DNA from: a virus
DNA length: 64,000 nucleotides
IMG/VR virus record: IMGVR_UViG_3300045988_121434
Location: 1-64,000 of that record
Direction: 5' to 3' (one strand)
A model generated the notes under the pieces. The model saw only the letters and a list, made by a program, of their open reading frames with translations, had not been told where the DNA came from and did no database searches. Shown here piece by piece: positions 5,893 through 48,882 of this stretch; within the stretch, counting starts at the first letter, position 1; the number at the start of each line of letters is the position of its first letter. Position numbers and translations under genes: made by a program.

Positions 5893-6168
5893 ATGAAATT
5901 ACAAGACTCTACAGAAAAAATAATAGATAGAAGAAAGGTGTATTACGTAACTATCTATAATAGCAGACACATGATTGTTGCATTCTTAGGCAGTAGTTTG
6001 CATTACGTTTCATCAAGAACTGATGCTGCTTTGTTTGATACGAAAGAGGATGCAGAGGAATTGATGAAAAATGCGGAATCAAACGGAATCTGTAACACGA
6101 TACCAGATTTCGCAAAAATGACGGTTTCATCTGATACGCAAGTCTTACTCCAACATTGGCATTTCTAG
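5893..6168 (+). CDS. hypothetical protein
   Basis: 91-aa ORF preceded by the leader motif. Confidence 0.55.
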   Translation: MKLQDSTEKIIDRRKVYYVTIYNSRHMIVAFLGSSLHYVSSRTDAALFDTKEDAEELMKNAESNGICNTIPDFAKMTVSSDTQVLLQHWHF

Positions 6169-22859: not shown

Positions 22860-23093
22860 ATGCGAACATTCACCCCCCCTAAGTGCGAAAACTGCATTTC
22901 TTACGACCACATAAAATGTAGTTGCAGGGAGCAGAGTTCCCCGCTGTTCGGCGGCAACATCAGTCCGCTGCACCTCGCTTGCAGCAGCTTTATCGGGCTT
23001 TCAAAGGTGTATGCGCCGAAGAACCGTGTGAAGAAATGGTACAAGGTGCGCACGATGGACGATATGAGCGATAGCAGGGCGAGATTGTATTAA
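22860..23093 (+). CDS. Cys-rich small protein with a C7 tract at codons 5-7
   Basis: MRTFTPPKCENCISYDHIKCSC..; C7 at 22873-22879. Confidence 0.45.
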   Translation: MRTFTPPKCENCISYDHIKCSCREQSSPLFGGNISPLHLACSSFIGLSKVYAPKNRVKKWYKVRTMDDMSDSRARLY

Positions 23094-27253: not shown

Positions 27254-27381
27254 CCGAGGTGTTCCCTGAATACGCTTACGAGCAAGTCTACGGTACCGTC
27301 CTTGTAGACAAGGAACTCCCCCCCCCCTACCGCAAGCACGGACAGAAGAAAGTCAAGAAGAAAAAAATAAATACATCAATT

Positions 27382-28095
27382 ATGAACATAGCGGAAATAC
27401 TTAAAGACAAGCCCAAAGGCACAAAGCTGTACTCCATCCCATGGGGTAAATGCACCCTGGAAGAAGTTGATACATCCTTGCCATTGCTCCCGATAACTGT
27501 GCGCAATTGTCTTGGTGGCCTGCAAAAAAGATATACGAAGAAAGGCACTTATCTCCCAAGTCTGGACGAGTGCCTCTTGTTCCCCTCCAAGGAGATGCGC
27601 GACTGGTATAAGTTCGTATGGAAGAAAGGCGCGATACTCGTAAGCAACGACGGGGAAACCGTGGTCATGTTCTTCGACTGGGCAAACGGTGCCTACACGG
27701 AGTTTTTCGGAGCGAAGTTCTCCGTCAAGAAAGAAGAAGGCAAGTCCACTTTTAACACCTGCGATTTCGAGTCTTGTTGCCAGAGCTACAACATAGTCCC
27801 CTGCATCAACCCCACGACAAGAGAGTTCTCCGTAAAGACAGTTAGAATCACGGTAGGTAACTCTGAGCCCAACGAGCCTAATATGCCCATTGAGCCTAAG
27901 TATAGCTTCAAGCCATTCGACAAGGTGCTTATCAGGGATCATGATGACGAAAAGTGGAGTTGTGATTTATTCAGTTATATGGAAGATGGTAAAGCTATTT
28001 GCGTTGGTACCTATGGTTTTCAATGCCTCCCTTACAATGAGGATACTGCAAAGCTGGTAGGAACTACAAAATCATTGGAGGATATAACAAGATGA
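27382..28095 (+). CDS. hypothetical two-domain protein (EPNEPNMPIEPK linker)
   Basis: The track ORF starts at GTG 27259; ATG 27382 (MNIAEILKDK) is more plausible; a C10 tract at 27318-27327 lies upstream of it. Confidence 0.55.
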   Translation: MNIAEILKDKPKGTKLYSIPWGKCTLEEVDTSLPLLPITVRNCLGGLQKRYTKKGTYLPSLDECLLFPSKEMRDWYKFVWKKGAILVSNDGETVVMFFDWANGAYTEFFGAKFSVKKEEGKSTFNTCDFESCCQSYNIVPCINPTTREFSVKTVRITVGNSEPNEPNMPIEPKYSFKPFDKVLIRDHDDEKWSCDLFSYMEDGKAICVGTYGFQCLPYNEDTAKLVGTTKSLEDITR

Positions 28096-33450: not shown

Positions 33451-34110
33451 ATGGCATGGTTAGCGGTAGACAAGGACGGTACGGAAAAAGTTTTCGATGT
33501 ACGGCCGTTTAGAGGCAACACGCAGGAAGACAAAGACCACGTGTGGGGGTTGTATGCTGGGGAAGAATACGATAGGTGGTATCCTCAACATGACGAACGC
33601 GAGGATGACACAGGCTATGCTTATTACCGTGGCTACTCGGTAGAGCTGCCCCACGGTACGATAGGCACGCTTATCGGGAAAAAGCTGTCATGGGCGGATG
33701 AACCCGTAGAACTTAAGGAAAAAGCCACAGGCAACAACAAGGTACAATATCAAAAGTGGTTTTGGAGCGACCACATACTCATAACTGATAGCATCAACAA
33801 CGCATCCGTGCAGGTAGCCGTGTTCAACCAGCAGGAGCTAAAAGACGAATATCACGCGGACGCCCTTATTTACGCCCTTTACGTTGACGAATCCTGCCGC
33901 AAGCGCGGCATCGGCAAGGGACTTCTCGAACAGGCCGAACGGCTCGCACATGACCATCACTGCCGCGTGGTGGCTCTCGAATGGGAAGAACAGGCAACCC
34001 CACGATGGACGCTCGAATGGTATCTTAGACAAGGCTATAAAGACACACGGTTAGGGACTGATTGCACCCTGCTTGTTAAAGACCTGCGGAAAGGAGGCAA
34101 CGATGGATAG
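33451..34110 (+). CDS. GNAT-family N-acetyltransferase with an extra N-terminal domain
   Basis: ALYVDESCRKRGIGKGLLEQAERLAHDHHCRVVALEW (acetyl-CoA motif A, R-x-x-G-x-G). Confidence 0.7.
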   Translation: MAWLAVDKDGTEKVFDVRPFRGNTQEDKDHVWGLYAGEEYDRWYPQHDEREDDTGYAYYRGYSVELPHGTIGTLIGKKLSWADEPVELKEKATGNNKVQYQKWFWSDHILITDSINNASVQVAVFNQQELKDEYHADALIYALYVDESCRKRGIGKGLLEQAERLAHDHHCRVVALEWEEQATPRWTLEWYLRQGYKDTRLGTDCTLLVKDLRKGGNDG

Positions 34111-35963: not shown

Positions 35964-36098
35964 ATGACTGACATTAAGATTTCGGTGCATCCGTTTGGCC
36001 ATAAGCTCGAATGGCGAGGATGGGGGGGTAACTTCTCGCCTGCTCTACGAGCCACCGACTACAAATGCCCTCACTGTATAATGATTGAATATGACTAA
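35964..36098 (+). CDS. TRD-like mini-ORF 1 (44 aa)
   Basis: ..WRGWGGNFSPALRATDYKCPHCIMIEYD*; G7 at 36022-28 is in frame; stop overlaps the next start (ATGACTAA). Confidence 0.6.
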   Translation: MTDIKISVHPFGHKLEWRGWGGNFSPALRATDYKCPHCIMIEYD

Positions 36099-36225
36099 GC
36101 AACACCCATTCGATGATTTTCATCAGCGCATTCATTGGGACGGCAACTCCATCGGAACCGTTACCCAGCAATGGGGCAATCCTGCGCCGAGGCACGGATG
36201 GCGAATAATGACAGAATATGATTAA
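36091..36225 (+). CDS. TRD-like mini-ORF 2 (44 aa)
   Basis: ..RIHWDGNSIGTVTQQWGNPAPRHGWRIMTEYD*; ATGATTAA overlap. Confidence 0.55.
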   Translation: MTKQHPFDDFHQRIHWDGNSIGTVTQQWGNPAPRHGWRIMTEYD

Positions 36226-36547
36226 CCCTCACACGCCCCGCTACAAGCGCGGCACCATCACCAAGGACGGCAAGCTATACGGACGCTATCCCGACGGTTC
36301 GCTCTACCGCATCTACTCCACCTCTGACCGACCCTTCCTTCAGATTGTTGACCGCAAGGGCGAGACGTTCCTTCGCATACGCCAAGCCACCGAGCAGGGC
36401 TATACCGACTGCCCTTGCCCTGGTGCTGCCGACCTCAGCTATTCCTCCTCGGCTCTAAGGCGCAGCAGGACGGTTGGGGGGGGGGGTAAGCTGGTGAACG
36501 CTCTGACCGCAGCAAGCGGAGGGGCGTGCGTGTTTGTTGAATTATGA
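36218..36547 (+). CDS. TRD-like mini-ORF 3 (109 aa)
   Basis: ..RQATEQGYTDCPCPGAADLSYSSSALRRSRTVGGGGKLVNALTAASGGACVFVEL*; G11 at 36476-86 is in frame. Confidence 0.7.
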   Translation: MINPHTPRYKRGTITKDGKLYGRYPDGSLYRIYSTSDRPFLQIVDRKGETFLRIRQATEQGYTDCPCPGAADLSYSSSALRRSRTVGGGGKLVNALTAASGGACVFVEL

Positions 36548-36554
36548 CTTGAAT

Positions 36555-36731
36555 ATGCTTAGAGCAAAGGCAATATCAATAATGGTGAAAAAGGTGGAGC
36601 AGACCATGGTGTTTCAGAACATGCAAGCCAAAGGTCTGATAACGCCTCGCTCGCTTGATGGCGAATGTTTTACTCTTACGTCTGCAATGGGATTAGGGGG
36701 GGCAAACGCCTGTAATAGTAAAGGTATATGA
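36555..36731 (+). CDS. TRD-like mini-ORF 4; family tail out of frame after a G7 tract
   Basis: ..DGECFTLTSAMGLGGANACNSKGI*; with one G fewer at 36696-36702 it reads ..GLGGQTPVIVKVYD* ending at 36735. Confidence 0.5.
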   Translation: MLRAKAISIMVKKVEQTMVFQNMQAKGLITPRSLDGECFTLTSAMGLGGANACNSKGI

Positions 36732-36859
36732 CTAAATACGACCTCTACCAATATCCTCGTGGCTACAACGACGGAGGTAGATTAGGCACTGACGTTTGCC
36801 CGACCTTGACAATCAATTCGTGGCAGCAAAATGTATTTCTGATTGAAGAATATGAATAA
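36728..36859 (+). CDS. TRD-like mini-ORF 5 (43 aa)
   Basis: MTKYDLYQYPRGYNDGGRLGTDVCPTLTINSWQQNVFLIEEYE*; ATGAATAA overlap. Confidence 0.6.
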   Translation: MTKYDLYQYPRGYNDGGRLGTDVCPTLTINSWQQNVFLIEEYE

Positions 36860-36871
36860 AGCAAAGACAAT

Positions 36872-38200
36872 ATGATCACAAAACTCAATTTCACCGACCG
36901 CACCATCAAGAGCTATGCTATCCGTAAGCTCACGCCAAAGGAGTGTTTCCGCTTGATGGGCGTTCGCGACAACGTAATCGGCACGATGCAGAGCAGCAAT
37001 GCCCAAGCAGCCGAACGTTTGCCCGACTGGAAGGGCAAGGGCAAACCCGAAGACATGGCTATATCTGCCTCACAGCAGTACAAGCAAGCCGGAAACTCAA
37101 TCGTGGTGGACGTGTTGGCCCACATCTACGAGCAACTTTTCTATCCCGCACCGCCCAAGCCCCGCAAGCAGGAACAGCTCACGCTCTTCGCCGACCTTGA
37201 TGACTCGCTGCCCGCCATGCCACCAACAGCCGGAGAACGTGGTAAGGAAAATCTTTTCCTCACCACGTTCTCCGGCTACGACTCGCAGCTCATGGCAGCC
37301 GACGTGCTATGCGAGTGGCATCCCGACTTCCGATGGACATGCGTAGGATGGAGCGACATCGACAAATACGCCTGTCAGATGCACAACCTCGTCTTCCCTC
37401 AGTTTGCCGACTGCGCCCTTGGCGACATCACCAAGATTGACTGGCATGAGGTGAAACGCTCGCTCCATGGGCGCGAGGTTGACATCTTCACCTATTCCTC
37501 GCCTTGCCAGGACATCAGCCAAGCCGGAAAGCAAATGGGACTGAAAGAGGGCAGCGACACACGAAGCGCCCTGCTTTGGCGAGTGGCAGATGCCGTGGAG
37601 GTGTTGCGCCCGAAATATCTCTTGCAGGAGAACGTGGCGGCACTGGTAAGCTCGAAGTTCATGCCCGACTTTCAGAAGTGGCTCGACAAACTCTCCTCGC
37701 TCGGCTATGTGAGCCGTTGGGCGCGACTCAACGCAAAGAACTATGGTGTGCCACAAAACCGCGATCGTGTGTTCTGCATTTCCATGCGCAAAGACGTAGC
37801 CTTCGACTATCAGTTTCCCGAACCCTTCGAGCTGCGCACCCGACTGGAGGACGTGTTGGAAAATGAGGTAGCCGACCGTTATTTCCTAAAAGACGATGCC
37901 GTGAGCAAGTTTCTCAAGGCTAACGACTCCGACAACGCCCTATTCATGCAGTTCGACCTGCCACCGACACACGAGGCAGCGATGTTCCTCAAGACCGTGC
38001 TTCAGATATTCATGGAGCGTCACGACGGATGGGACGAAGGCATTGAGTGGAACGAGAAGGAGCTGAGCTATCGTCGCCCAACCATCGCCCGTCTCTACGA
38101 AAAGTTCAAGGAGAACCCAAAGAAACTGGACGTGGAATATTGGCGCGGCTTTTACAAGATGTTTAAGGAGAATATGGAGAGGAATAAGGATGCGAACTGA
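36872..38200 (+). CDS. DNA (cytosine-5)-methyltransferase core, circularly permuted (motifs IX-X precede I-VIII)
   Basis: IX IRKLTPKECFRLMGV, X YKQAGNSIVVDVL, then I LTTFSGYDS, IV YSSPCQDISQAGK, VI LLQENV, VIII YGVPQNRDRVFCI, then the start of a TRD (ADRYFLKDDAVSKFL). Confidence 0.9.
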   Translation: MITKLNFTDRTIKSYAIRKLTPKECFRLMGVRDNVIGTMQSSNAQAAERLPDWKGKGKPEDMAISASQQYKQAGNSIVVDVLAHIYEQLFYPAPPKPRKQEQLTLFADLDDSLPAMPPTAGERGKENLFLTTFSGYDSQLMAADVLCEWHPDFRWTCVGWSDIDKYACQMHNLVFPQFADCALGDITKIDWHEVKRSLHGREVDIFTYSSPCQDISQAGKQMGLKEGSDTRSALLWRVADAVEVLRPKYLLQENVAALVSSKFMPDFQKWLDKLSSLGYVSRWARLNAKNYGVPQNRDRVFCISMRKDVAFDYQFPEPFELRTRLEDVLENEVADRYFLKDDAVSKFLKANDSDNALFMQFDLPPTHEAAMFLKTVLQIFMERHDGWDEGIEWNEKELSYRRPTIARLYEKFKENPKKLDVEYWRGFYKMFKENMERNKDAN

Positions 38201-38381
38201 CAACCCACCCGACCGTGTAATCCATATCATAGCTGATATGATTATGGGTGGCAGGTTGCTCACCTGCCCTGCCTCGATGTTCAGTGCAGAACGCTGCAAC
38301 GGAGCCTTTCACGGCATAGCAATAACCATCATGTCGCGCACCGATTGCAGCGACGTGTTCTTTGTAGCAGTAGAATTATGA
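38190..38381 (+). CDS. TRD-like mini-ORF 6 (63 aa)
   Basis: ..GAFHGIAITIMSRTDCSDVFFVAVEL*; start overlaps the core stop, end is an ATGA overlap. Confidence 0.5.
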   Translation: MRTDNPPDRVIHIIADMIMGGRLLTCPASMFSAERCNGAFHGIAITIMSRTDCSDVFFVAVEL

Positions 38382-38526
38382 AGAAAACCAACCCGTGTCA
38401 CGCAATACAAAATGGGGGGGTACGATTGCGCCTGCAATTACTTCCCACTATTTTAAGGCTGGTGTGCGAGACTTCCTCTTTGCCCTTGCCATACCACATT
38501 GTTGTTTGATAGTAGAATATGAATAA
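38378..38526 (+). CDS. TRD-like mini-ORF 7, frame broken at a G7 tract
   Basis: As sequenced it stops at 38509 (MKKTNPCHAIQNGGVRLRLQ..). With one extra G at 38414-20 it reads ..NGGGTIAPAITSHYFKAGVRDFLFALAIPHCCLIVEYE* ending at 38526. Confidence 0.5.
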
Positions 38527-38671
38527 CAACCCTCGCCCTATCATCCTCGGCTCTTACAGTCCCTCGCAGAACGGCATCATCGTGTCACCACACGGCATAG
38601 CCTTGTGCATAGCCGGGGGAGGTAAGGGTCACGATGTGGATAAACCGAAAATACTGATAGAGTATGACTGA
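38519..38671 (+). CDS. TRD-like mini-ORF 8 (50 aa)
   Basis: ..SQNGIIVSPHGIALCIAGGGKGHDVDKPKILIEYD*; ATGACTGA overlap. Confidence 0.6.
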   Translation: MNNNPRPIILGSYSPSQNGIIVSPHGIALCIAGGGKGHDVDKPKILIEYD

Positions 38672-38843
38672 CAAGTATTACATTGGCTGGGTACGCAGCG
38701 GCAAGGACGGCAAGGGCCTCGTAAAGAGCAGACCGCGCAAGCAGATAGCCAATGCCGTGACGACAATGGTCGGAAGAGGTATTGCCGACCCTCGCGACGG
38801 ACTCGGCAACACCACACCGCATATAGTATATGAATTTGAGTAA
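38664..38843 (+). CDS. TRD-like mini-ORF 9 (59 aa)
   Basis: ..RPRKQIANAVTTMVGRGIADPRDGLGNTTPHIVYEFE*. Confidence 0.55.
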   Translation: MTDKYYIGWVRSGKDGKGLVKSRPRKQIANAVTTMVGRGIADPRDGLGNTTPHIVYEFE

Positions 38844-38860
38844 CCCATAAAACAAAAAAA

Positions 38861-39241
38861 ATGGAAAAAGACAAAAACGTAGAGATAGGCCGTGCTCTCG
38901 CCAATTTTGATATGGCCTGTCGCAATTTGGTCAACCTTGTCAACGACCAACTCTTCGAGACCTCCCGCTCACCCTACTGGGTAGCCGACGAGGTAGGAGG
39001 CATCTGCGACTTCGGCGATACCGACTTCCTCACGCCCGAAGAAATGGTGCTCATTCTCGAACACGGCGTCAGCTACGACGACTATGTAGAGTGGCGCGAA
39101 GCCAACATCAAGTATGGCGACACCAAAGGCTACATCAAACTCAAGTCATGGCTCCGCGGATGCCGACACGACCGTGTGGAGGGTGCAAATACCAAGACAA
39201 ACTGCATCGCCCCAGTCCGTGGCCGTGGAGTAATTCGATAA
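38861..39241 (+). CDS. hypothetical protein inserted in the TRD array
   Basis: 126-aa ORF, not TRD-like except the C-terminal ..CIAPVRGRG, which resembles the start of mini-ORF 10. Confidence 0.55.
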   Translation: MEKDKNVEIGRALANFDMACRNLVNLVNDQLFETSRSPYWVADEVGGICDFGDTDFLTPEEMVLILEHGVSYDDYVEWREANIKYGDTKGYIKLKSWLRGCRHDRVEGANTKTNCIAPVRGRGVIR

Positions 39242-39266
39242 CAACAGTAACAAAAGACAACCTCCT

Positions 39267-39440
39267 ATGCTACACTTTCGCATAGCAGCCTTTCGAGGCC
39301 GTGACCCCGACAATCCGTCCGACCGCAAGCATCCCTCCTGCGGTCGTTTCCGTCAGCGCATGGAGATAAATGCGTTGGGTACGACCAACACGCTTACGTC
39401 AGTAGGCAAGGATAATATGGCATATATAGAGTATGAATAA
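39267..39440 (+). CDS. TRD-like mini-ORF 10 (57 aa)
   Basis: ..IAAFRGRDPDNPSDRK..RQRMEINALGTTNTLTSVGKDNMAYIEYE*, the classic Dcm-type TRD pattern. Confidence 0.7.
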   Translation: MLHFRIAAFRGRDPDNPSDRKHPSCGRFRQRMEINALGTTNTLTSVGKDNMAYIEYE

Positions 39441-39582
39441 TCAAACCCCATTCGTGCAACGCCTCTCTCGCCTCTGCCCACGTCGGGGGTACTCCACCGC
39501 CCTGTCCGCACGCTACGACGGATGGGCAGGGCTCTACGACGAGCACGGACAGCACACCATTGTATTGATAGAGTATGAATAA
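39433..39582 (+). CDS. TRD-like mini-ORF 11 (49 aa)
   Basis: ..CPRRGYSTALSARYDGWAGLYDEHGQHTIVLIEYE*. Confidence 0.6.
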   Translation: MNNQTPFVQRLSRLCPRRGYSTALSARYDGWAGLYDEHGQHTIVLIEYE

Positions 39583-39715
39583 GTACATACAAAATTGTCC
39601 GTCAGGTATCTGTTGCGTTCTGACCTCTCATTACGCAAGAGAAGGATGGGCGAACATAGCAAGCAATACAACATCACAATGCAAAGCACCCACAATATTG
39701 ATAGAGTATGAATAA
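39575..39715 (+). CDS. TRD-like mini-ORF 12 (46 aa)
   Basis: ..GICCVLTSHYAREGWANIASNTTSQCKAPTILIEYE*. Confidence 0.6.
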   Translation: MNKYIQNCPSGICCVLTSHYAREGWANIASNTTSQCKAPTILIEYE

Positions 39716-40202
39716 AAATGTAACAAACCCCATAAAAACAACAGAGACAATGAAACCAGAAGAAAACAACCGTATGGAGGCACTTGCCTACATCATAGCC
39801 GACCTAAAGGCAGAGAACATAGAGCTGGTGCAGCGTGTGCATCAGCTTGTGGAGGATTACAACGACGTAGCACGTCAGTTGCGTGGAATGGAGAAGCGTA
39901 AGGACGAAGACCAGTCAAGGCAGACGCTCGGCGAAATGATGCAGATGCGCGACCATTGCGACAAACTGGAGGTTGAAAACAACAATTTGAAGACGTGCTT
40001 GATAGCAGTCAGCTCGTTTCTGCGAGACAAAAATCTGTATATGGCTAATGGCACATTATGTTCTTATGGGTCTGGCAATCCAGAAGTATGTCCTGAGTAC
40101 TGCAAAAAATGTAACTCCTACCTAAGTACTTTAAAGGATGTTGGTGTGGTTTGCAGCAGAAGACTTGCAGAAGCTTCCGTAATTTTTGCGAAGAGTAAAT
40201 GA
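39708..40202 (+). CDS. coiled-coil/Cys-rich hypothetical protein inserted in the TRD array
   Basis: 164-aa ORF; starts on an ATGAATAA junction and ends on an ATGA overlap. Confidence 0.55.
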   Translation: MNKNVTNPIKTTETMKPEENNRMEALAYIIADLKAENIELVQRVHQLVEDYNDVARQLRGMEKRKDEDQSRQTLGEMMQMRDHCDKLEVENNNLKTCLIAVSSFLRDKNLYMANGTLCSYGSGNPEVCPEYCKKCNSYLSTLKDVGVVCSRRLAEASVIFAKSK

Positions 40203-40360
40203 CACCAACAAAAACCCTCGTAGTCGGCATGATGCAGACGCCACCCTATGACCGCATGTTTGAGCAGAGCCGCCGCGTGTACTCCGCTCAGGGAATATCG
40301 CCCACGCTGCATACACAAGGGGGGGGTGATAGAGAGATTAAGGTATTGGTGGAGCTGTAA
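40199..40360 (+). CDS. TRD-like mini-ORF 13 (53 aa)
   Basis: ..YDRMFEQSRRVYSAQGISPTLHTQGGGDREIKVLVEL*; G8 at 40319-26 is in frame. Confidence 0.7.
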   Translation: MTPTKTLVVGMMQTPPYDRMFEQSRRVYSAQGISPTLHTQGGGDREIKVLVEL

Positions 40361-40398: not shown

Positions 40399-40476
40399 CA
40401 CATATCACTGAACGAATGAGACTAACATCGTTTTCATTTGTTTCGTCTGGTGACAAACAAAAACAACATTTCATCT

Positions 40477-40830
40477 ATGATACAACATCAGCATTGGGAA
40501 GACTCCACTCACATACTCATTACCGACGAGCAGCATCATGGCAGCATACAGGTGTTCATCCCCAAGCGCACCGAAGACAAGCCCTTGGATGGCGAGGCTG
40601 ACGCTCTCGTCTATTCGCTGTGGGTGGGCGAACGGCACCGTGGCCGTGGGGTGGCAAAACTCCTGATGGAGACAGCCGAAAGGGAACTGAAGCGCTGCGG
40701 CATAGCGACCGTCGCTATATCGTGGGATGGACGCGACTCTCCCCAATGGGTGTTGCAATGGTATGAAAGGTTGGGCTACGAAGGAAAAGCGTTCGACTAC
40801 CGCTGCTGCACGCTTCTTAAACGGTTGTAG
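40477..40830 (+). CDS. GNAT-family N-acetyltransferase (paralog of the C-terminal half of 33451-34110)
   Basis: SLWVGERHRGRGVAKLLMETAERELKRCGIATVAISW; parallels ALYVDESCRKRGIGKGLLEQAERLAHDHHCRVVALEW. Confidence 0.7.
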   Translation: MIQHQHWEDSTHILITDEQHHGSIQVFIPKRTEDKPLDGEADALVYSLWVGERHRGRGVAKLLMETAERELKRCGIATVAISWDGRDSPQWVLQWYERLGYEGKAFDYRCCTLLKRL

Positions 40831-40998: not shown

Positions 40999-42174
40999 AT
41001 GAGCGACTTAAAGATTTTTGCAAAGACCATTGAACCTGAAGCCCAGGAGCAAGTAAGGCAGATGGCAGAGAGCGAGGCTTACCGCGACTGTAAGATTCGC
41101 ATTATGCCCGATTGCCATGCCGGAAAGGAATGCACCGTAGGCACCGTGATTGAGACCCGCGGCAAAGTGGTGCCCAACACCGTGGGCGTTGACATCGGTT
41201 GCGGTATGCTCGTGTGGGATTTAGGCTTTGCCAACATTGATATGGAGATTCTCGACCGTATCATCAACGACAACATTCCAAGCGGATTCAATGTGCATGA
41301 GAAGCGTTTGTCGTCAGAGATGGTTTCCCTTATGCACAATGAAATATGGTGTTTTTTGCCTCCGTGGAAGCAATATTTTGACCTCGACTATGTACTGCGT
41401 TCGCTCGGCACCCTTGGCGGTGGCAGCCACTTTATTGAGGTTGACGTGGACGACGAAGGACGCAAGTATCTTGTAGTACATTCGGGTAGCCGCAATTTAG
41501 GCGTAAAGATATGCCGACATTTTCAGCAGTTGGCATCAAGACAATGCAACAACAGTGAGGAACGTGGACGTATCATTTCCGAACTGAAAGCTCAGGGCAG
41601 ACAGAGCGAGATAAACGATGCGCTGCGCCGGTTGAAACCCGTTTCTAAAGACATGGCCTACATTAGCGGTACCACGCTTGGCGATTACTATGATGCCATG
41701 CGCTTGTGTCAGCATTATGCCGACTTGAACCGTTTTCTTATGGCGCAAACCATAATCAAAGGTCTTGAACTAAAGTCTACAGGTCGTGTGTTCACCACCA
41801 TGCACAACTACATCGACACCTTCGGCATTATCCGCAAGGGAGCTGTGAGCGCAAAGAAGGGCGAGCCTCTGATTATCCCTCTGAACATGCGCGACGGTTC
41901 GCTGCTGTGTACTGGCAAGGGCAACAACGACTGGCTTCAGTCGGCTCCCCACGGCGCAGGCAGACTAATGTCGCGCTCGGCTGCCAAGAAGCAGCTCAGC
42001 ATGGACGAATACCGCCAACAGATGCACGACATCTACTCTACATCGGTATGCGAGGCCACAATCGACGAAGCTCCAATGGCGTATAAGTCGGCAGAGGAAA
42101 TAGAAGCGTTGATAGGCGACACCGTGAACATCGTGAAGCGCATTAAGCCGATATATAACTTTAAGGCGAAGTAA
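40999..42174 (+). CDS. rtcB: RtcB-family RNA 3'-phosphate ligase
   Basis: MPDCHAGKECTVG, GGGSHFIEVD, VHSGSRNLG, TMHNY, APHGAGRLMSR (conserved RtcB metal/GMP-His motifs). Confidence 0.85.
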   Translation: MSDLKIFAKTIEPEAQEQVRQMAESEAYRDCKIRIMPDCHAGKECTVGTVIETRGKVVPNTVGVDIGCGMLVWDLGFANIDMEILDRIINDNIPSGFNVHEKRLSSEMVSLMHNEIWCFLPPWKQYFDLDYVLRSLGTLGGGSHFIEVDVDDEGRKYLVVHSGSRNLGVKICRHFQQLASRQCNNSEERGRIISELKAQGRQSEINDALRRLKPVSKDMAYISGTTLGDYYDAMRLCQHYADLNRFLMAQTIIKGLELKSTGRVFTTMHNYIDTFGIIRKGAVSAKKGEPLIIPLNMRDGSLLCTGKGNNDWLQSAPHGAGRLMSRSAAKKQLSMDEYRQQMHDIYSTSVCEATIDEAPMAYKSAEEIEALIGDTVNIVKRIKPIYNFKAK

Positions 42175-45649: not shown

Positions 45650-46423
45650 TTAAAATAGAGAGAGTTGTGCCTGCTCCAACTTGATGCGCTTGCAAGCCTT
45701 GTTGTAATACTCCTTATTGAGCTCGAAGCCGATGAAATTGCGTTTCTCTTTTATACAAGCAATGGCAGTGGTGCCGCTGCCCATGCAGTTGTCTAATATG
45801 GTGTCACCCTCGTTGGAATAGGTACGGATGAGGTACTGAATAAGAGCGACTGGCTTTTGTGTGGGGTGGAAGGTGTCGGCTGAATGTTCCTTATCGAAGC
45901 AGATAATGCTCTTTGGAAATTTTTCGTCTGATACGATAGTAGGCACTTCTTTATGGTCGCCGTAACACCCCCGCTTCAAACTATGAGAACCATCACCCTT
46001 GTGATGGTTTCGTTTATGTGGCGCACATTTTACCATCTGAGGGTTGTAGATAGGTTGCTTCCGATAGAATACTGCAATATCCTCATGCGAGCGCAGAGGC
46101 ATCTTGTTGACATTCAAAAAGCCCGTTGCTCTGTTTTTGCTCCAAATAAGATTATATTTCCAAAGTTTCGGCTGCGACACCATAAGTTGTGCAGTGAACA
46201 TACCTTGACAGAAAAGAATAATCGCTGCATTGTTTTTTGCTATGCGTAGATATTCTTTCCATAATGACTCAAGCGGAATAATGCTATCCCATTTCCCTCC
46301 TTCACTCTGTTTGTTGAGAACACCATACGGCAAATCGCACACGATGCAATCCACGCTCCCGTCTGGAATCCTTTTCATCCCTTCCAGACAGTCTTCGTTA
46401 TATATCTTATTCAGTTCTACCAT
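45650..46423 (-). CDS. beta-class N4/N6 DNA methyltransferase (N6_N4_Mtase type)
   Basis: Motif IV CDLPYG precedes the SAM motif HPTQKPVALIQYLI..DTILDNCMGSGTTAIAC. Confidence 0.85.
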   Translation of the reverse strand: MVELNKIYNEDCLEGMKRIPDGSVDCIVCDLPYGVLNKQSEGGKWDSIIPLESLWKEYLRIAKNNAAIILFCQGMFTAQLMVSQPKLWKYNLIWSKNRATGFLNVNKMPLRSHEDIAVFYRKQPIYNPQMVKCAPHKRNHHKGDGSHSLKRGCYGDHKEVPTIVSDEKFPKSIICFDKEHSADTFHPTQKPVALIQYLIRTYSNEGDTILDNCMGSGTTAIACIKEKRNFIGFELNKEYYNKACKRIKLEQAQLSLF

Positions 46424-47383: not shown

Positions 47384-47803
47384 TTACATTTTGAATTGTT
47401 TTTTCAAGAAAGTGTTGCTTTTAATAAGCTCTATCATTTCCTCCTCGGAGTGTATTCCTTCCCAAAATACTTCAGTATGCGACCCACGCCTTTCATCATC
47501 TACGGAGAACGGCACGGCATAGTTGGTATATACAACACCGTGATGTTTTATCAAGTGACGACCTGGATTCTTGTAGATGTTATTGATCCACGTCTCGTTG
47601 TCACATTCAGTCCATATTTTACATTCTTTGTGGGTAAGATTTTTGTCGATACCCATAGGATAGTGACCTGCCTTGCCGTTACTTTTGTTCCGAAATAAAT
47701 GATCTTTGCCATATCGTGATTGTTTTATAATTCGCCAAAGTCCAGTTTCATCTGTTGGAATTTCTCGGCATACCATTGTTTGTATGATTTGCCCGAAATC
47801 CAC
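47384..47803 (-). CDS. hypothetical protein (start uncertain)
   Basis: 139-aa ORF; overlaps the 3' end of the upstream gene by 79 nt. Confidence 0.45.
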   Translation of the reverse strand: MDFGQIIQTMVCREIPTDETGLWRIIKQSRYGKDHLFRNKSNGKAGHYPMGIDKNLTHKECKIWTECDNETWINNIYKNPGRHLIKHHGVVYTNYAVPFSVDDERRGSHTEVFWEGIHSEEEMIELIKSNTFLKKQFKM

Positions 47804-48882
47804 CAGTCGTAGATATTTTCCGCTATTTCGTTTTCTTGCTCCTCCGTCAAGCGGTCAGAAGAGGAGCTGGACGAAAACCCTGGGGCTGCGATATTCCGTA
47901 CACCTCTGTTTTGTCTCCAATGTTCCGGGTCTGGATGTTTGATGTAGCCGCCTGTGTCCTGAGCAATCCTCTGACGTTTCTGAGAGGCATCCAGTCCTTG
48001 CGGATGTTCCACCAAATATATTCTCTTTTGAATACCCCCCCCGTTTCGGATAGCCTTAATAGCCTTTATCCAGTTGCGCTTGATATGCGGATAGCGTTCA
48101 TTCTCGATGCGTTTCTGCTTTGCAGACGACATAGGGCAGCCGATGCAGCCGATGCGATGCCATCCCTCGTCGTAGAGCGAGCAATGCGGAACCTTCACCA
48201 CATCGTTAAGAAACTCCCATACGTCCTTTTCCGTCCAATAAATGATGGGTGAAATAAGCAGACTCTCTTTGCCGTGGATGCAGCTTAATGTCTGTTCTTC
48301 ATCAGCATTAGTGATATTCACGCCTTGCTCCTTGGATTTACGGCGAGCACGTTTAGCCTTCAGCTCCTGACGATATTCGTCCAGACCGTCAAGATTGCCA
48401 CTAAACTTTCGGTTATTTATTTCTACCTCATTTCGTTTGGCTCGGCGTGCGCTCTCTGCCTTGCGGATGCCGATTAGCGTTACCTTGCCAGCACCTGCCG
48501 TTTCCTTATATTCAGCGCAACACCAGCGCACACGCATAGTGGGCAGAATCTGCTTTTCTACGGCAATCTGAAAGATAGATTTGCCAGGCTTTAGCAGTTC
48601 CACCTCGGGATAGTTCTTCTTAACGAAACGTATCACTTCGGGTGGATCAACGCTCGTAAGATTCATGTGACCGCGAAATTTCACCCCCGCCAACTGAGTC
48701 ATGTGGAAAAGAGCTTGAGAATCCTTTCCACCACTAAACGCCAAGTAATATCCATTCTCGGCATCATAGTTGAGGGCTATCTTCTCTGCTTTTTGCAGCA
48801 GCTCCACCGAGTGAAGCATCTTTTTTCGCAGTCCTTCCGAAGCTCGCTCCAATGCTTCGGCAAGCGTAATGTCTATATTCAT
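47725..48882 (-). CDS. PAPS-reductase-fold PP-loop protein (DndC/IbrA-like)
   Basis: YYLAFSGGKDSQALFHM (SGGKDS PP-loop) and Cys cluster IGCIGCPMSS; G8 tract (C8 on plus strand, 48035-42) is in frame. Confidence 0.75.
   Translation of the reverse strand: MNIDITLAEALERASEGLRKKMLHSVELLQKAEKIALNYDAENGYYLAFSGGKDSQALFHMTQLAGVKFRGHMNLTSVDPPEVIRFVKKNYPEVELLKPGKSIFQIAVEKQILPTMRVRWCCAEYKETAGAGKVTLIGIRKAESARRAKRNEVEINNRKFSGNLDGLDEYRQELKAKRARRKSKEQGVNITNADEEQTLSCIHGKESLLISPIIYWTEKDVWEFLNDVVKVPHCSLYDEGWHRIGCIGCPMSSAKQKRIENERYPHIKRNWIKAIKAIRNGGGIQKRIYLVEHPQGLDASQKRQRIAQDTGGYIKHPDPEHWRQNRGVRNIAAPGFSSSSSSDRLTEEQENEIAENIYDWWISGKSYKQWYAEKFQQMKLDFGEL

Follow-up and report, generated by a model that had tools for sequence, protein, structure and literature searches.

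We describe here an array of 13 small open reading frames (ORFs) of 43-109 aa, called cassettes below, that flanks on both sides the gene of a C5-cytosine DNA methyltransferase core in the genome of a human-gut phage, IMG/VR record IMGVR_UViG_3300045988_121434. The part analysed, referred to as the window, comprises positions 1-64,000 of that record (64,000 nt), and the array occupies 35964-40360 on its + strand. Five of the cassettes contain an uninterrupted run of G. The lengths of such runs differ between closely related phage genomes, the differences put single cassettes into or out of frame, and the reading frame behind the run is conserved in both states. The reading that we prefer, with a probability of about 0.75, is that slippage at the poly-G tracts switches individual trans-acting target recognition domain (TRD) cassettes of one permuted C5 core.

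Poly-G tracts in the cassette array

The five runs (G7, G11, G7, G7 and G8 in the cassettes 1, 3, 4, 7 and 13, respectively; Table 1) are all on the + strand, at the positions given for them in an initial annotation that had been made from the letters alone. No other G run of at least 7 was found in the 64-kb window, and the five span 4.3 kb; the chance that five runs dropped at random into 64 kb would share one span of that size is, by our estimate, about 1e-4. Counted on both strands, the heptamer GGGGGGG occurs 17 times in the window, against 2.77 +/- 1.96 times in 100 dinucleotide-preserving shuffles, an excess of about sixfold, and 0 of the 100 shuffles reached 17.

As is usual for phase-variable methylases, the repeats lie inside coding sequence, G7-G11 within five cassette ORFs. 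The cassettes 1, 3 and 13 are in frame as sequenced, and the cassettes 4 and 7 are each off by one G. The tail common to the cassettes is ..[ILV]IEY[ED] or ..VEL, directly before the stop codon, and one additional G in cassette 7 or one G fewer in cassette 4 brings it back, as the initial annotation had correctly stated. With G8, cassette 7 gives a 49-aa product (...NGGGTIAPAITSHYFKAGVRDFLFALAIPHCCLIVEYE, ending in ..CCLIVEYE); with G6 or G9, cassette 4 reads ..GLGGQTPVIVKVYD up to the stop at 36737.

The same annotation had placed the runs exactly at the Gly-rich part of the TRD motif. It is true that they encode Gly-Gly(-Gly), but they have no single fixed place relative to the TL-like motif: the tract comes before it in the cassettes 1 (SPALRAT), 3 (NALTAAS) and 7 (APAITSH) and after it in the cassettes 4 (FTLTSAMGLGG) and 13 (SPTLHTQGGG). 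A G-quadruplex or a regulatory role was considered for the runs and dropped, since a lone G run can not form a quadruplex and the tracts are all coding, on the sense strand and made up of Gly codons.

The permuted core and the part that it is missing

The core protein matches PF00145 with an E value of 2e-51 in two stretches, and the order of its motifs is permuted. Motifs IX (IRKLTPKECFRLMG) and X (QAGNSIVV) come first and are followed by I (FSGYDS), IV (SPCQ), VI (ENV) and VIII (QNRDR). The catalytic motifs are all readable in the translation (FSGYDS, SPCQ, ENV, QNRDR, RKLTPKECFRLMG and GNS), and the presence of the motifs I, IV, VI, VIII, IX and X identifies the protein as a C5-cytosine DNA methyltransferase. 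The solved structure most similar to it is M.MpeI, and M.HhaI also aligns. Residues 15-49 of the core align to residues 333-367 of the M.MpeI chain (motif IX) and residues 190-329 to residues 113-255 (motifs IV-VIII), and the core is without the TL/Gly-rich second half of the TRD. In human-gut metagenomes the core family has 7972 scored proteins at E <=1e-10; its best matches are named only 'MAG TPA: Cytosine specific methyltransferase [Caudoviricetes sp.]'.

Several observations connect the cassettes with the missing half. TL-type motifs were seen by eye in several of them (CPTLT, SPTLHTQGGG, NALTAASGG and APAITSHYFKAG). When compared with phages by tblastn, cassette 13 matched the TRD region of annotated C5 methyltransferases, including those of the Bacillus phages phi3T, SPbeta, H2 and rho11s; 65 records were matched with E values of 5e-4 to 2e-3 and, among the matches listed, all lay under methylase genes or in unannotated records. 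A phmmer search of cassette 13 against PDB gave a single match, a spurious one to a designed repeat protein. With a cassette inserted into the de-permuted core between its halves, the two separate Pfam stretches gave way to a single unbroken match over model positions 23-322 of 324. A fusion of the two parts also exists in nature: the protein P0001 (489 aa, locus L099, 5001-6470) joins in frame a permuted core with a C-terminal homologue of cassette 13. From the TL-type motifs, the match of cassette 13, the gain in the Pfam match and the P0001 fusion, we infer that the small ORFs supply the missing TRD piece. Most likely, as far as the sequences can tell, the cassettes are C-terminal halves of TRDs that act in trans with the core.

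The Gly run of P0001 is interrupted (QRGGD). None of the called genes next to it in L099 is shorter than 90 aa, and thus no cassette array is evident at that locus.

Tract length variation among relatives

The relatives compared were 80 IMG/VR loci with a core 70-95% identical to the window core; additional exact-protein matches were taken from ENA and Logan assemblies. All tract comparisons rest on consensus assemblies. Around the core, the 80 loci contain 224 coding-strand G runs of at least 6, with lengths of 6-11. The initial annotation had proposed such a comparison and had named one fixed length per tract in the reads, with the same lengths in relatives, as an outcome that would contradict switching. 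The lengths are not constant: orthologous uninterrupted G tracts of at least 6 range from 6 to 11, even between genomes free of substitutions. At the cassette 1 site, G6 was found three times, G7 seven times, G8 13 times and G10 once; at the cassette 3 site, the lengths 5, 6, 7, 8, 9 and 11 were found one, three, five, ten, three and one times, respectively. Where the run is interrupted, as in GGGGGAGG, its length stays fixed at 5.

To compare different kinds of runs, we grouped the tracts that share identical 60-nt flanks on both sides. Length polymorphism was seen in 17 of 32 such groups for G runs of at least 6, in 1 of 35 for G5, in 3 of 91 for A runs of at least 6 and in 0 of 43 for T runs of at least 6. 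A G7 within the essential core gene, present in one subgroup, has the same length in 11 of 11 relatives, which argues against a general sequencing artefact of G runs.

Two loci from other samples, L081 (ERZ28569356 / SAMN02333939) and L082 (ERZ27229642), have a core identical to that of the window and show 0 substitutions against it over 6.8 and 11.3 kb, respectively. The sole difference among the three is the cassette 3 tract, which is G11 in the window, G10 in L081 and G8 in L082; the G10 allele gives a truncated product of 92 aa and the G8 allele an in-frame product of 108 aa. An apparent deletion of 1058 bp in L081 relative to the window was traced to a scaffold gap filled with N and gives no evidence for the loss of a cassette. 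Between the loci L041 and L042 there are 0 mismatches in 13.3 kb, yet three poly-G tracts and one poly-C tract are of unequal length. In near-identical pairs covering 83.8 kb in total, we counted 13 mismatches, 8 poly-G indels, one poly-C indel, one poly-A/T indel and two others, from which we roughly estimate that, per site, a tract change is about a thousand times commoner than a substitution. At the cassette 7 site, L047 has G9 within identical 60-nt flanks. The length differences between close relatives thus shift the frame, and both on and off alleles are present.

It could be argued that homopolymers were miscalled and that the frameshifts are unreal. Homopolymers are error-prone, notably at lengths of at least 10, and G11 against G10 could be a miscall. 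L047 also has a G22 run (66-87), 66 nt from its contig end, that looks like a read artefact of the poly-G type or a place where the assembly broke at a long tract; it was kept out of every conclusion. However, the three assemblies of the window lineage, made from different samples with different assemblers, agree on G7, G7, G7 and G8 at the remaining four tracts, including the frameshifted ones of the cassettes 4 and 7. A and T runs of equal length and the core-gene G7 are stable, and differences of 2-3 bases occur (G8 against G11; C7 against C9). The codon bias and the on-length pattern described below are properties of the genomes and not of the reads. A sequencing or assembly artefact is therefore very improbable as the general explanation. 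Sequencing error, which the initial annotation had regarded as the main alternative, is unlikely for the cassettes 4 and 7 in particular, because their G7 recurs in three assemblies and in-frame orthologues exist elsewhere. For cassette 7 these are the G8 alleles of L030 and L059 and the full-length proteins P0241 and P0243, and for cassette 4 the G9 allele of L043; seven other relatives have a fixed interrupted allele of cassette 4, GGGGGAGGA.

A megablast search of GenBank phages with the array as query gave no match, and the phage has no close relative in GenBank; no JGI metagenome contig matched in a pattern scan for the G11 site, and a scan of IMG/VR for the cassette 7 site returned the contig of L047 only. 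Co-binning of whole-phage contigs with Prevotella metagenome-assembled genomes hints weakly at Prevotella as the host.

Reading frames and selection in on and off alleles

To call the frame of each tract, the lengths L-1, L and L+1 were tested, and an ORF of 30-135 aa with the family tail at its end was required. Of the 148 unique cassettes with a tract, 53 were called in frame; 50 would be restored by the loss of one G and 45 by the gain of one, so that 95 are off. G8 is in frame in 32 of 56 cases, G7 needs an additional G in 27 of 41 and G9 needs the removal of one in 15 of 16. By this pattern most off alleles lie a single G away from an on length of 8 (GGG GGG GGT). Once restored, G7, G8 and G9 alleles often encode the same peptide, for instance in L051, L054 and L055, and the off alleles are free of secondary lesions. 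The ratio dN/dS downstream of the tract, calculated on the on frame, is about 0.076, and it is 0.069 for variants private to off alleles. Purifying selection acts on the reading frame behind the tract, hence there is no decay of the off alleles; being intact and one step from the on length, they have what a reversible switch needs.

The codon usage is equally distinctive. GGG is the rarest Gly codon, with 8.6% of the 916 Gly codons in the window genes and 6.4% in the long genes of the loci; as first codon of Gly-Gly pairs, it accounts for 43% in intact cassettes vs 6.3% in long genes. Since the stable interrupted alleles show that Gly-Gly-Gly needs no homopolymer, the uninterrupted runs are maintained. 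They were found in at least 15 unrelated cassette families, at differing positions.

These findings bear on the view that the tracts are non-adaptive hot spots, a by-product of Gly-Gly-Gly motifs under G/C slippage, and that the off cassettes are damaged genes of a redundant array. About two thirds of the tract-bearing cassettes are indeed off, and each of the three assemblies of this phage has the cassettes 4 and 7 in the off state; G/C runs beyond the array vary too, and the content and order of the array differ among relatives, so that single cassettes look dispensable. However, mutation pressure together with purifying selection should have let the stable interrupted alleles replace the tracts, and such an origin explains neither the preference for the rarest Gly codon at Gly-Gly nor a dN/dS of about 0.07 past the tract in off alleles without other lesions, nor the occurrence of tracts at various positions in unrelated families. 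We consider this explanation improbable and continue to favour poly-G switching of the cassettes.

In public gene calls, tract-truncated, full-length and locked forms of cassette 3 coexist. The truncated forms are P0170 (ending in ..RTVGGG; 348 member sequences), P0172 (..GGVSS; 326), P0186 (..GGGVNW; 593) and P0198 (179), the full-length form is P0121 (379), and the locked forms, in which the tract is interrupted or replaced, are P0127 (GNG; 823) and P0135 (RRG; 818). For cassette 7, these calls contain the full-length in-frame proteins P0241 and P0243 as well as locked alleles (P0245, NEVG; P0246, NEGG).

Two of the public proteins are hybrids joined exactly at the Gly/G tract. P0178, with 28 member sequences, has the N-terminal part of cassette 3 and the C-terminal part of cassette 11, and P0249 has the N-terminal part of cassette 10 and the C-terminal part of cassette 7. 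They suggest that tract-to-tract recombination may swap halves of TRDs; assembly chimeras are an alternative.

A poly-C tract was found inside motif IX of the core (RKLTPPECF) in L030, L057, L059, L061 and L065, at about position 6062 of the locus and nt 62 of the core; the window is without it at the corresponding place, about 36933. The C8 allele keeps the frame. The C7 allele of L030, L061 and L065 breaks it at the tract, and the product stops after about 27 aa in L061 and L065 and after 47 in L030. It is possible that this tract is a master on/off switch for the whole system in some relatives.

The proposed switch and the points against it

We propose that the uninterrupted G runs are hypermutable homopolymers at which slipped-strand mispairing in phage DNA replication would add or remove one G, every slip shifting a single cassette gene into or out of frame. 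As C-terminal halves of TRDs, the cassettes would join, in trans, the one permuted C5 core that is without that half. Each tract would then switch one methylation specificity, independently and heritably, and the phage population would be a mixture of methylation patterns. The benefit could be a hedge between protection from host restriction enzymes and exposure to methylation-dependent nucleases or, alternatively, less competition of the modules for one core. The likely role of the system is escape from host restriction.

The initial annotation had compared the tracts with phasevarions, the switching being per TRD. The tract variation of the relatives supports that interpretation, but the likeness extends to the switch mechanism alone and nothing points to a regulated gene set; a phasevarion in the strict sense, namely a phase-variable regulon, is not supported and would not be expected for a phage anti-restriction enzyme.

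More tentatively, the locus may be a combinatorial system, in which a permuted TRD-deficient core is served by about 8-15 trans-acting mini-TRDs, roughly a third of them with a poly-G switch, and in which some lineages have the core poly-C as master switch. The progeny of a burst would then have many methylation patterns, and the tracts might also be the joints at which TRD halves recombine into new specificities. We hold this extended picture with clearly less confidence than the switch itself.

A number of observations weigh against the switch. The in-frame share (53 of 148, or 36%) is that expected for random phase, and tract lengths peak at 7-8 irrespective of the in-frame length; the cassette 1 family, for example, is on at G7 yet mostly G8. 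There is thus no sign of selection for the on state. Length polymorphism between relatives also extends to G/C runs outside the array, so hypermutability is general to G/C tracts in these phages and not array-specific; the distinction of the array is the concentration and maintenance of its tracts. As four of the five tracts are equal in the three assemblies of the window lineage, G7/G8 tracts may switch slowly, and the off state of the cassettes 4 and 7 may be a stable one in that lineage. With regard to the proteins, tblastn of the cassettes 3 and 7 against phages gave no match, so that cassette 13 alone has detected TRD homology, and the gain from inserting a cassette into the core is small (2-9 bits). 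An AlphaFold2 model of P0001 reached a pLDDT of 35, since its 31-sequence alignment was too shallow, and was not used.

The random phase fits fast switching with fluctuating or weak selection, and it fits slippage of RNA polymerase or the ribosome equally well. In the latter case the cassettes would be expressed to some extent whatever the length of the DNA tract, the frame of the DNA would matter little, and the DNA changes would be tolerated noise. The near-random thirds (53:50:45), a length distribution that does not track the in-frame length and a downstream frame conserved even in off alleles all agree with such recoding. Many tracts are, furthermore, followed by TAA or TAG in one frame, as in cassette 1 (GGGGGGGTAAC), and a stop codon after a slippery run favours P-site slippage; these stops may, on the other hand, simply be due to GGT-A.. 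codons. Against recoding, the well-documented bacterial transcriptional slippage takes place at runs of some nine or more A or T residues and not at G7-G8. Switching at the DNA level is directly visible and accounts for the same conservation, and alleles with a tract occur alongside locked, interrupted ones, as is typical of contingency loci with on/off switching. Recoding is in our opinion an unlikely explanation, and DNA-level switching of the cassettes by poly-G slippage is retained as the preferred one.

Organization of the array and its surroundings

The features of the array are given in Table 1. Most cassettes are linked by overlapping stop/start junctions (..GAATATGAnTAA.. or ..TTATGA..); the start of cassette 2, for example, overlaps the stop of cassette 1 (ATGACTAA junction). 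A mini-ORF lies between cassette 5 and the core gene, sharing an ATGA-type overlap with the stop of the former and with the start of the latter, and would serve translational coupling. The out-of-frame product of cassette 4 likewise ends exactly on the ATGA of cassette 5, and the whole array looks coupled.

Table 1. Cassettes, mini-ORF and core gene of the array in the window, with their G tracts
Feature	Position	Strand	Length	G tract in the window	Remarks
Cassette 1	35964..36098	+	44 aa	G7, 36022-36028, encodes W-G-G; in frame	Tail ..IMIEYD
Cassette 2	36091..36225	+	44 aa from ATG	None	Tail ..IMTEYD
Cassette 3	36218..36547	+	109 aa	G11, 36476-36486, encodes V-G-G-G-G-K; in frame	Tail ..VFVEL
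Cassette 4	36555..36737	+		G7, 36696-36702; out of frame	ATG 36555; ORF as sequenced ends at 36731 (..GLGGANACNSKGI)
Cassette 5	36728..36859	+	43 aa	None	..CPTLTINSWQQNVFLIEEYE; relatives G6-G8 at RGG
Mini-ORF	36852..36875	+	Seven codons		MNKAKTI and stop, read from the sequence
Methyltransferase core	36872..38200	+	442 aa		PF00145
Cassette 6	38190..38381	+	63 aa	None (ATGGGTGGC)	Tail ..VAVEL; relatives G6-G9 at the same Gly-Gly(-Gly)
Cassette 7	38378..38526	+		G7, 38414-38420; out of frame	Frame of ATG 38378 reads MKKTNPCHAIQNGGVRLRLQ... and stops at 38509
Cassette 8	38519..38671	+	50 aa	Interrupted run GGGGGAGG at 38615	..CIAGGGKGHD..ILIEYD
Cassette 9	38664..38843	+	59 aa	None	Tail ..IVYEFE
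Cassette 10	39267..39440	+	57 aa	None	..TNTLTSVGKDNMAYIEYE; relatives G7-G8 at INGGG
Cassette 11	39433..39582	+	49 aa	G5 at 39485	..CPRRGYSTAL..VLIEYE
Cassette 12	39575..39715	+	46 aa	None	..CCVLTSHYAREG..ILIEYE
Cassette 13	40199..40360	+	53 aa	G8, 40319-40326; in frame	..SPTLHTQGGGDREIKVLVEL

For the single cassettes, the consequences of tract length can be read from the alleles. In cassette 1, G7 and G10 are in frame and G8 leads to an immediate TAA stop. The interrupted allele of cassette 8 is G5 in 33 of 35 relatives, and the uninterrupted alleles of its family range from 6 to 10. The cassette 11 site is G5 in 26 of 36 relatives; the remainder have G6-G9, with the product RRGGYSTAL. Cassette 13 has G7-G11 in relatives, and in L101 and L104, of about 98% identity, it has G9 and is out of frame.

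In the same two loci, about 98% identical to the window elsewhere, the order and content of the cassettes differ from window 38517-39711, the block corresponding to 39169-39711 coming before that of 38650-38871. This rearrangement may indicate cassette shuffling, perhaps via the conserved junction sequence. Switching by inversion, as in a shufflon, was dropped as a candidate because all cassettes have the same orientation; no search for repeats or a recombinase was made.

The neighbours of the array are an RtcB-type RNA ligase (40999-42174), an N6/N4 DNA methyltransferase (45650-46423) and two GNAT acetyltransferases (33451-34110 and 40438-40830). A counter-defence neighbourhood of methyltransferases and a tRNA ligase has been described in the Quimbyviridae gut phages (PMC8008677), and by analogy the surroundings of the array resemble it; membership in that family is not implied.

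Other G/C runs in the genome

Three further G/C runs were followed in relatives. At 48035-48042, a C8 on the + strand is a G8 on the coding - strand of the ORF 47725-48882, whose product is PAPS-reductase-like (PHROG 424). Six near-identical contigs have G7 there, with a 378-aa product, and one has G9; with the G8 of the window the product is of 385 aa, and its C-terminus therefore appears frame-shifted. This tract, near the gene of the N6/N4 DNA methyltransferase, is a candidate for another switch. At 22873-22879, a C7 forms codons 5-7 (T-P-P) of a small Cys-rich ORF with its ATG at 22860, and near-identical contigs have C7, C7, C7 and C9. The third run, C10 at 27318-27327, is 55 nt upstream of the called start of the gene 27382-28095 and alternatively encodes LPPPY in a longer ORF that begins with GTG at 27259. 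Its length in relatives is C8 (three times), C10 and C11, and a switch located in a 5' region or an N-terminal extension is conceivable.

Implications

To switch methylases by means of repeats is a classic strategy of bacteria, and multispecific methylases are a classic counter-defence of phages. If the preferred reading is true, the locus unites both in one phage, with one switch per recognition module, and provides a cheap diversification of the viral epigenetic coat across hosts that differ in restriction or methylation-dependent defence. Since the core family is large, with protein clusters from human-gut metagenomes that number in the thousands, such switching could affect the host range of gut phages, the assignment of hosts by methylation motifs and the annotation of small ORFs; small phage ORFs of this kind currently look like frameshifted junk in annotation. 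If it is confirmed, the modularity of a core with mini-TRDs would in addition offer a natural toolkit for programmable 5-methylcytosine methylation.

Comparison with known systems

No published description of this arrangement was found in full-text literature searches. The phase-variable Type III mod genes of Haemophilus, Neisseria and Helicobacter (phasevarions) are the best-known bacterial counterparts. A poly-G tract is also present in the Type I hsdS gene of NgoAV (PMC9577141), and a Type IIG enzyme of Campylobacter jejuni is phase-variable (PMC4889913). The array is like these bacterial methylases in that a simple repeat lies inside coding sequence, slippage shifts the frame, and on and off alleles are found in close relatives. 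Unlike in bacterial phasevarions, the switch is in a phage and on small separate C5 recognition modules, not on mod or hsdS, and there are several switches per enzyme.

To our knowledge, Prevotella is not known for poly-G phase variation. Among phages, those of Campylobacter have hypermutable poly-G tracts in receptor-binding protein genes (Sorensen et al. 2021, Cell Rep 35:109214, as cited in PMC12823448). As far as that citation goes, the two cases are alike in that poly-G in phage genes creates phenotypic diversity within populations, which for the array would follow from the proposed mechanism, and they differ in that the array concerns methylase recognition modules in gut phages that probably infect Prevotella.

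On the side of the enzyme, the array invites comparison with multispecific C5 methyltransferases. Those of the Bacillus phages SPR, phi3T, rho11s, SPbeta and H2 have tandem TRDs in one polypeptide with the canonical motif order; one core with several TRDs, each for one target, protects against many restriction enzymes. The likeness would be that one phage core serves several recognition modules, and cassette 13 is homologous to their TRD region. The layout is different: the core has motifs IX and X before I-VIII, not in canonical order, and the TRD-like pieces are encoded apart from it, by ORFs of 43-109 aa on either side, many with a frameshift switch.

C5 methyltransferases that are naturally split or permuted include M.AquI, M.EcoHK31I and M.BssHII. 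Fragments and circular permutants of M.SssI and M.MpeI have been engineered (PMC3404938, PMC5944983). These enzymes demonstrate that circular permutation is tolerated and that assembly from separate polypeptides is possible. The known natural split cases have two fixed partners and one specificity, and we know of no split C5 methyltransferase with an interchangeable library of recognition subunits or with repeat-based switching. What appears to be new here is the combination, in a phage, of components of known kinds: poly-G switches on separate recognition modules of a permuted C5 core.

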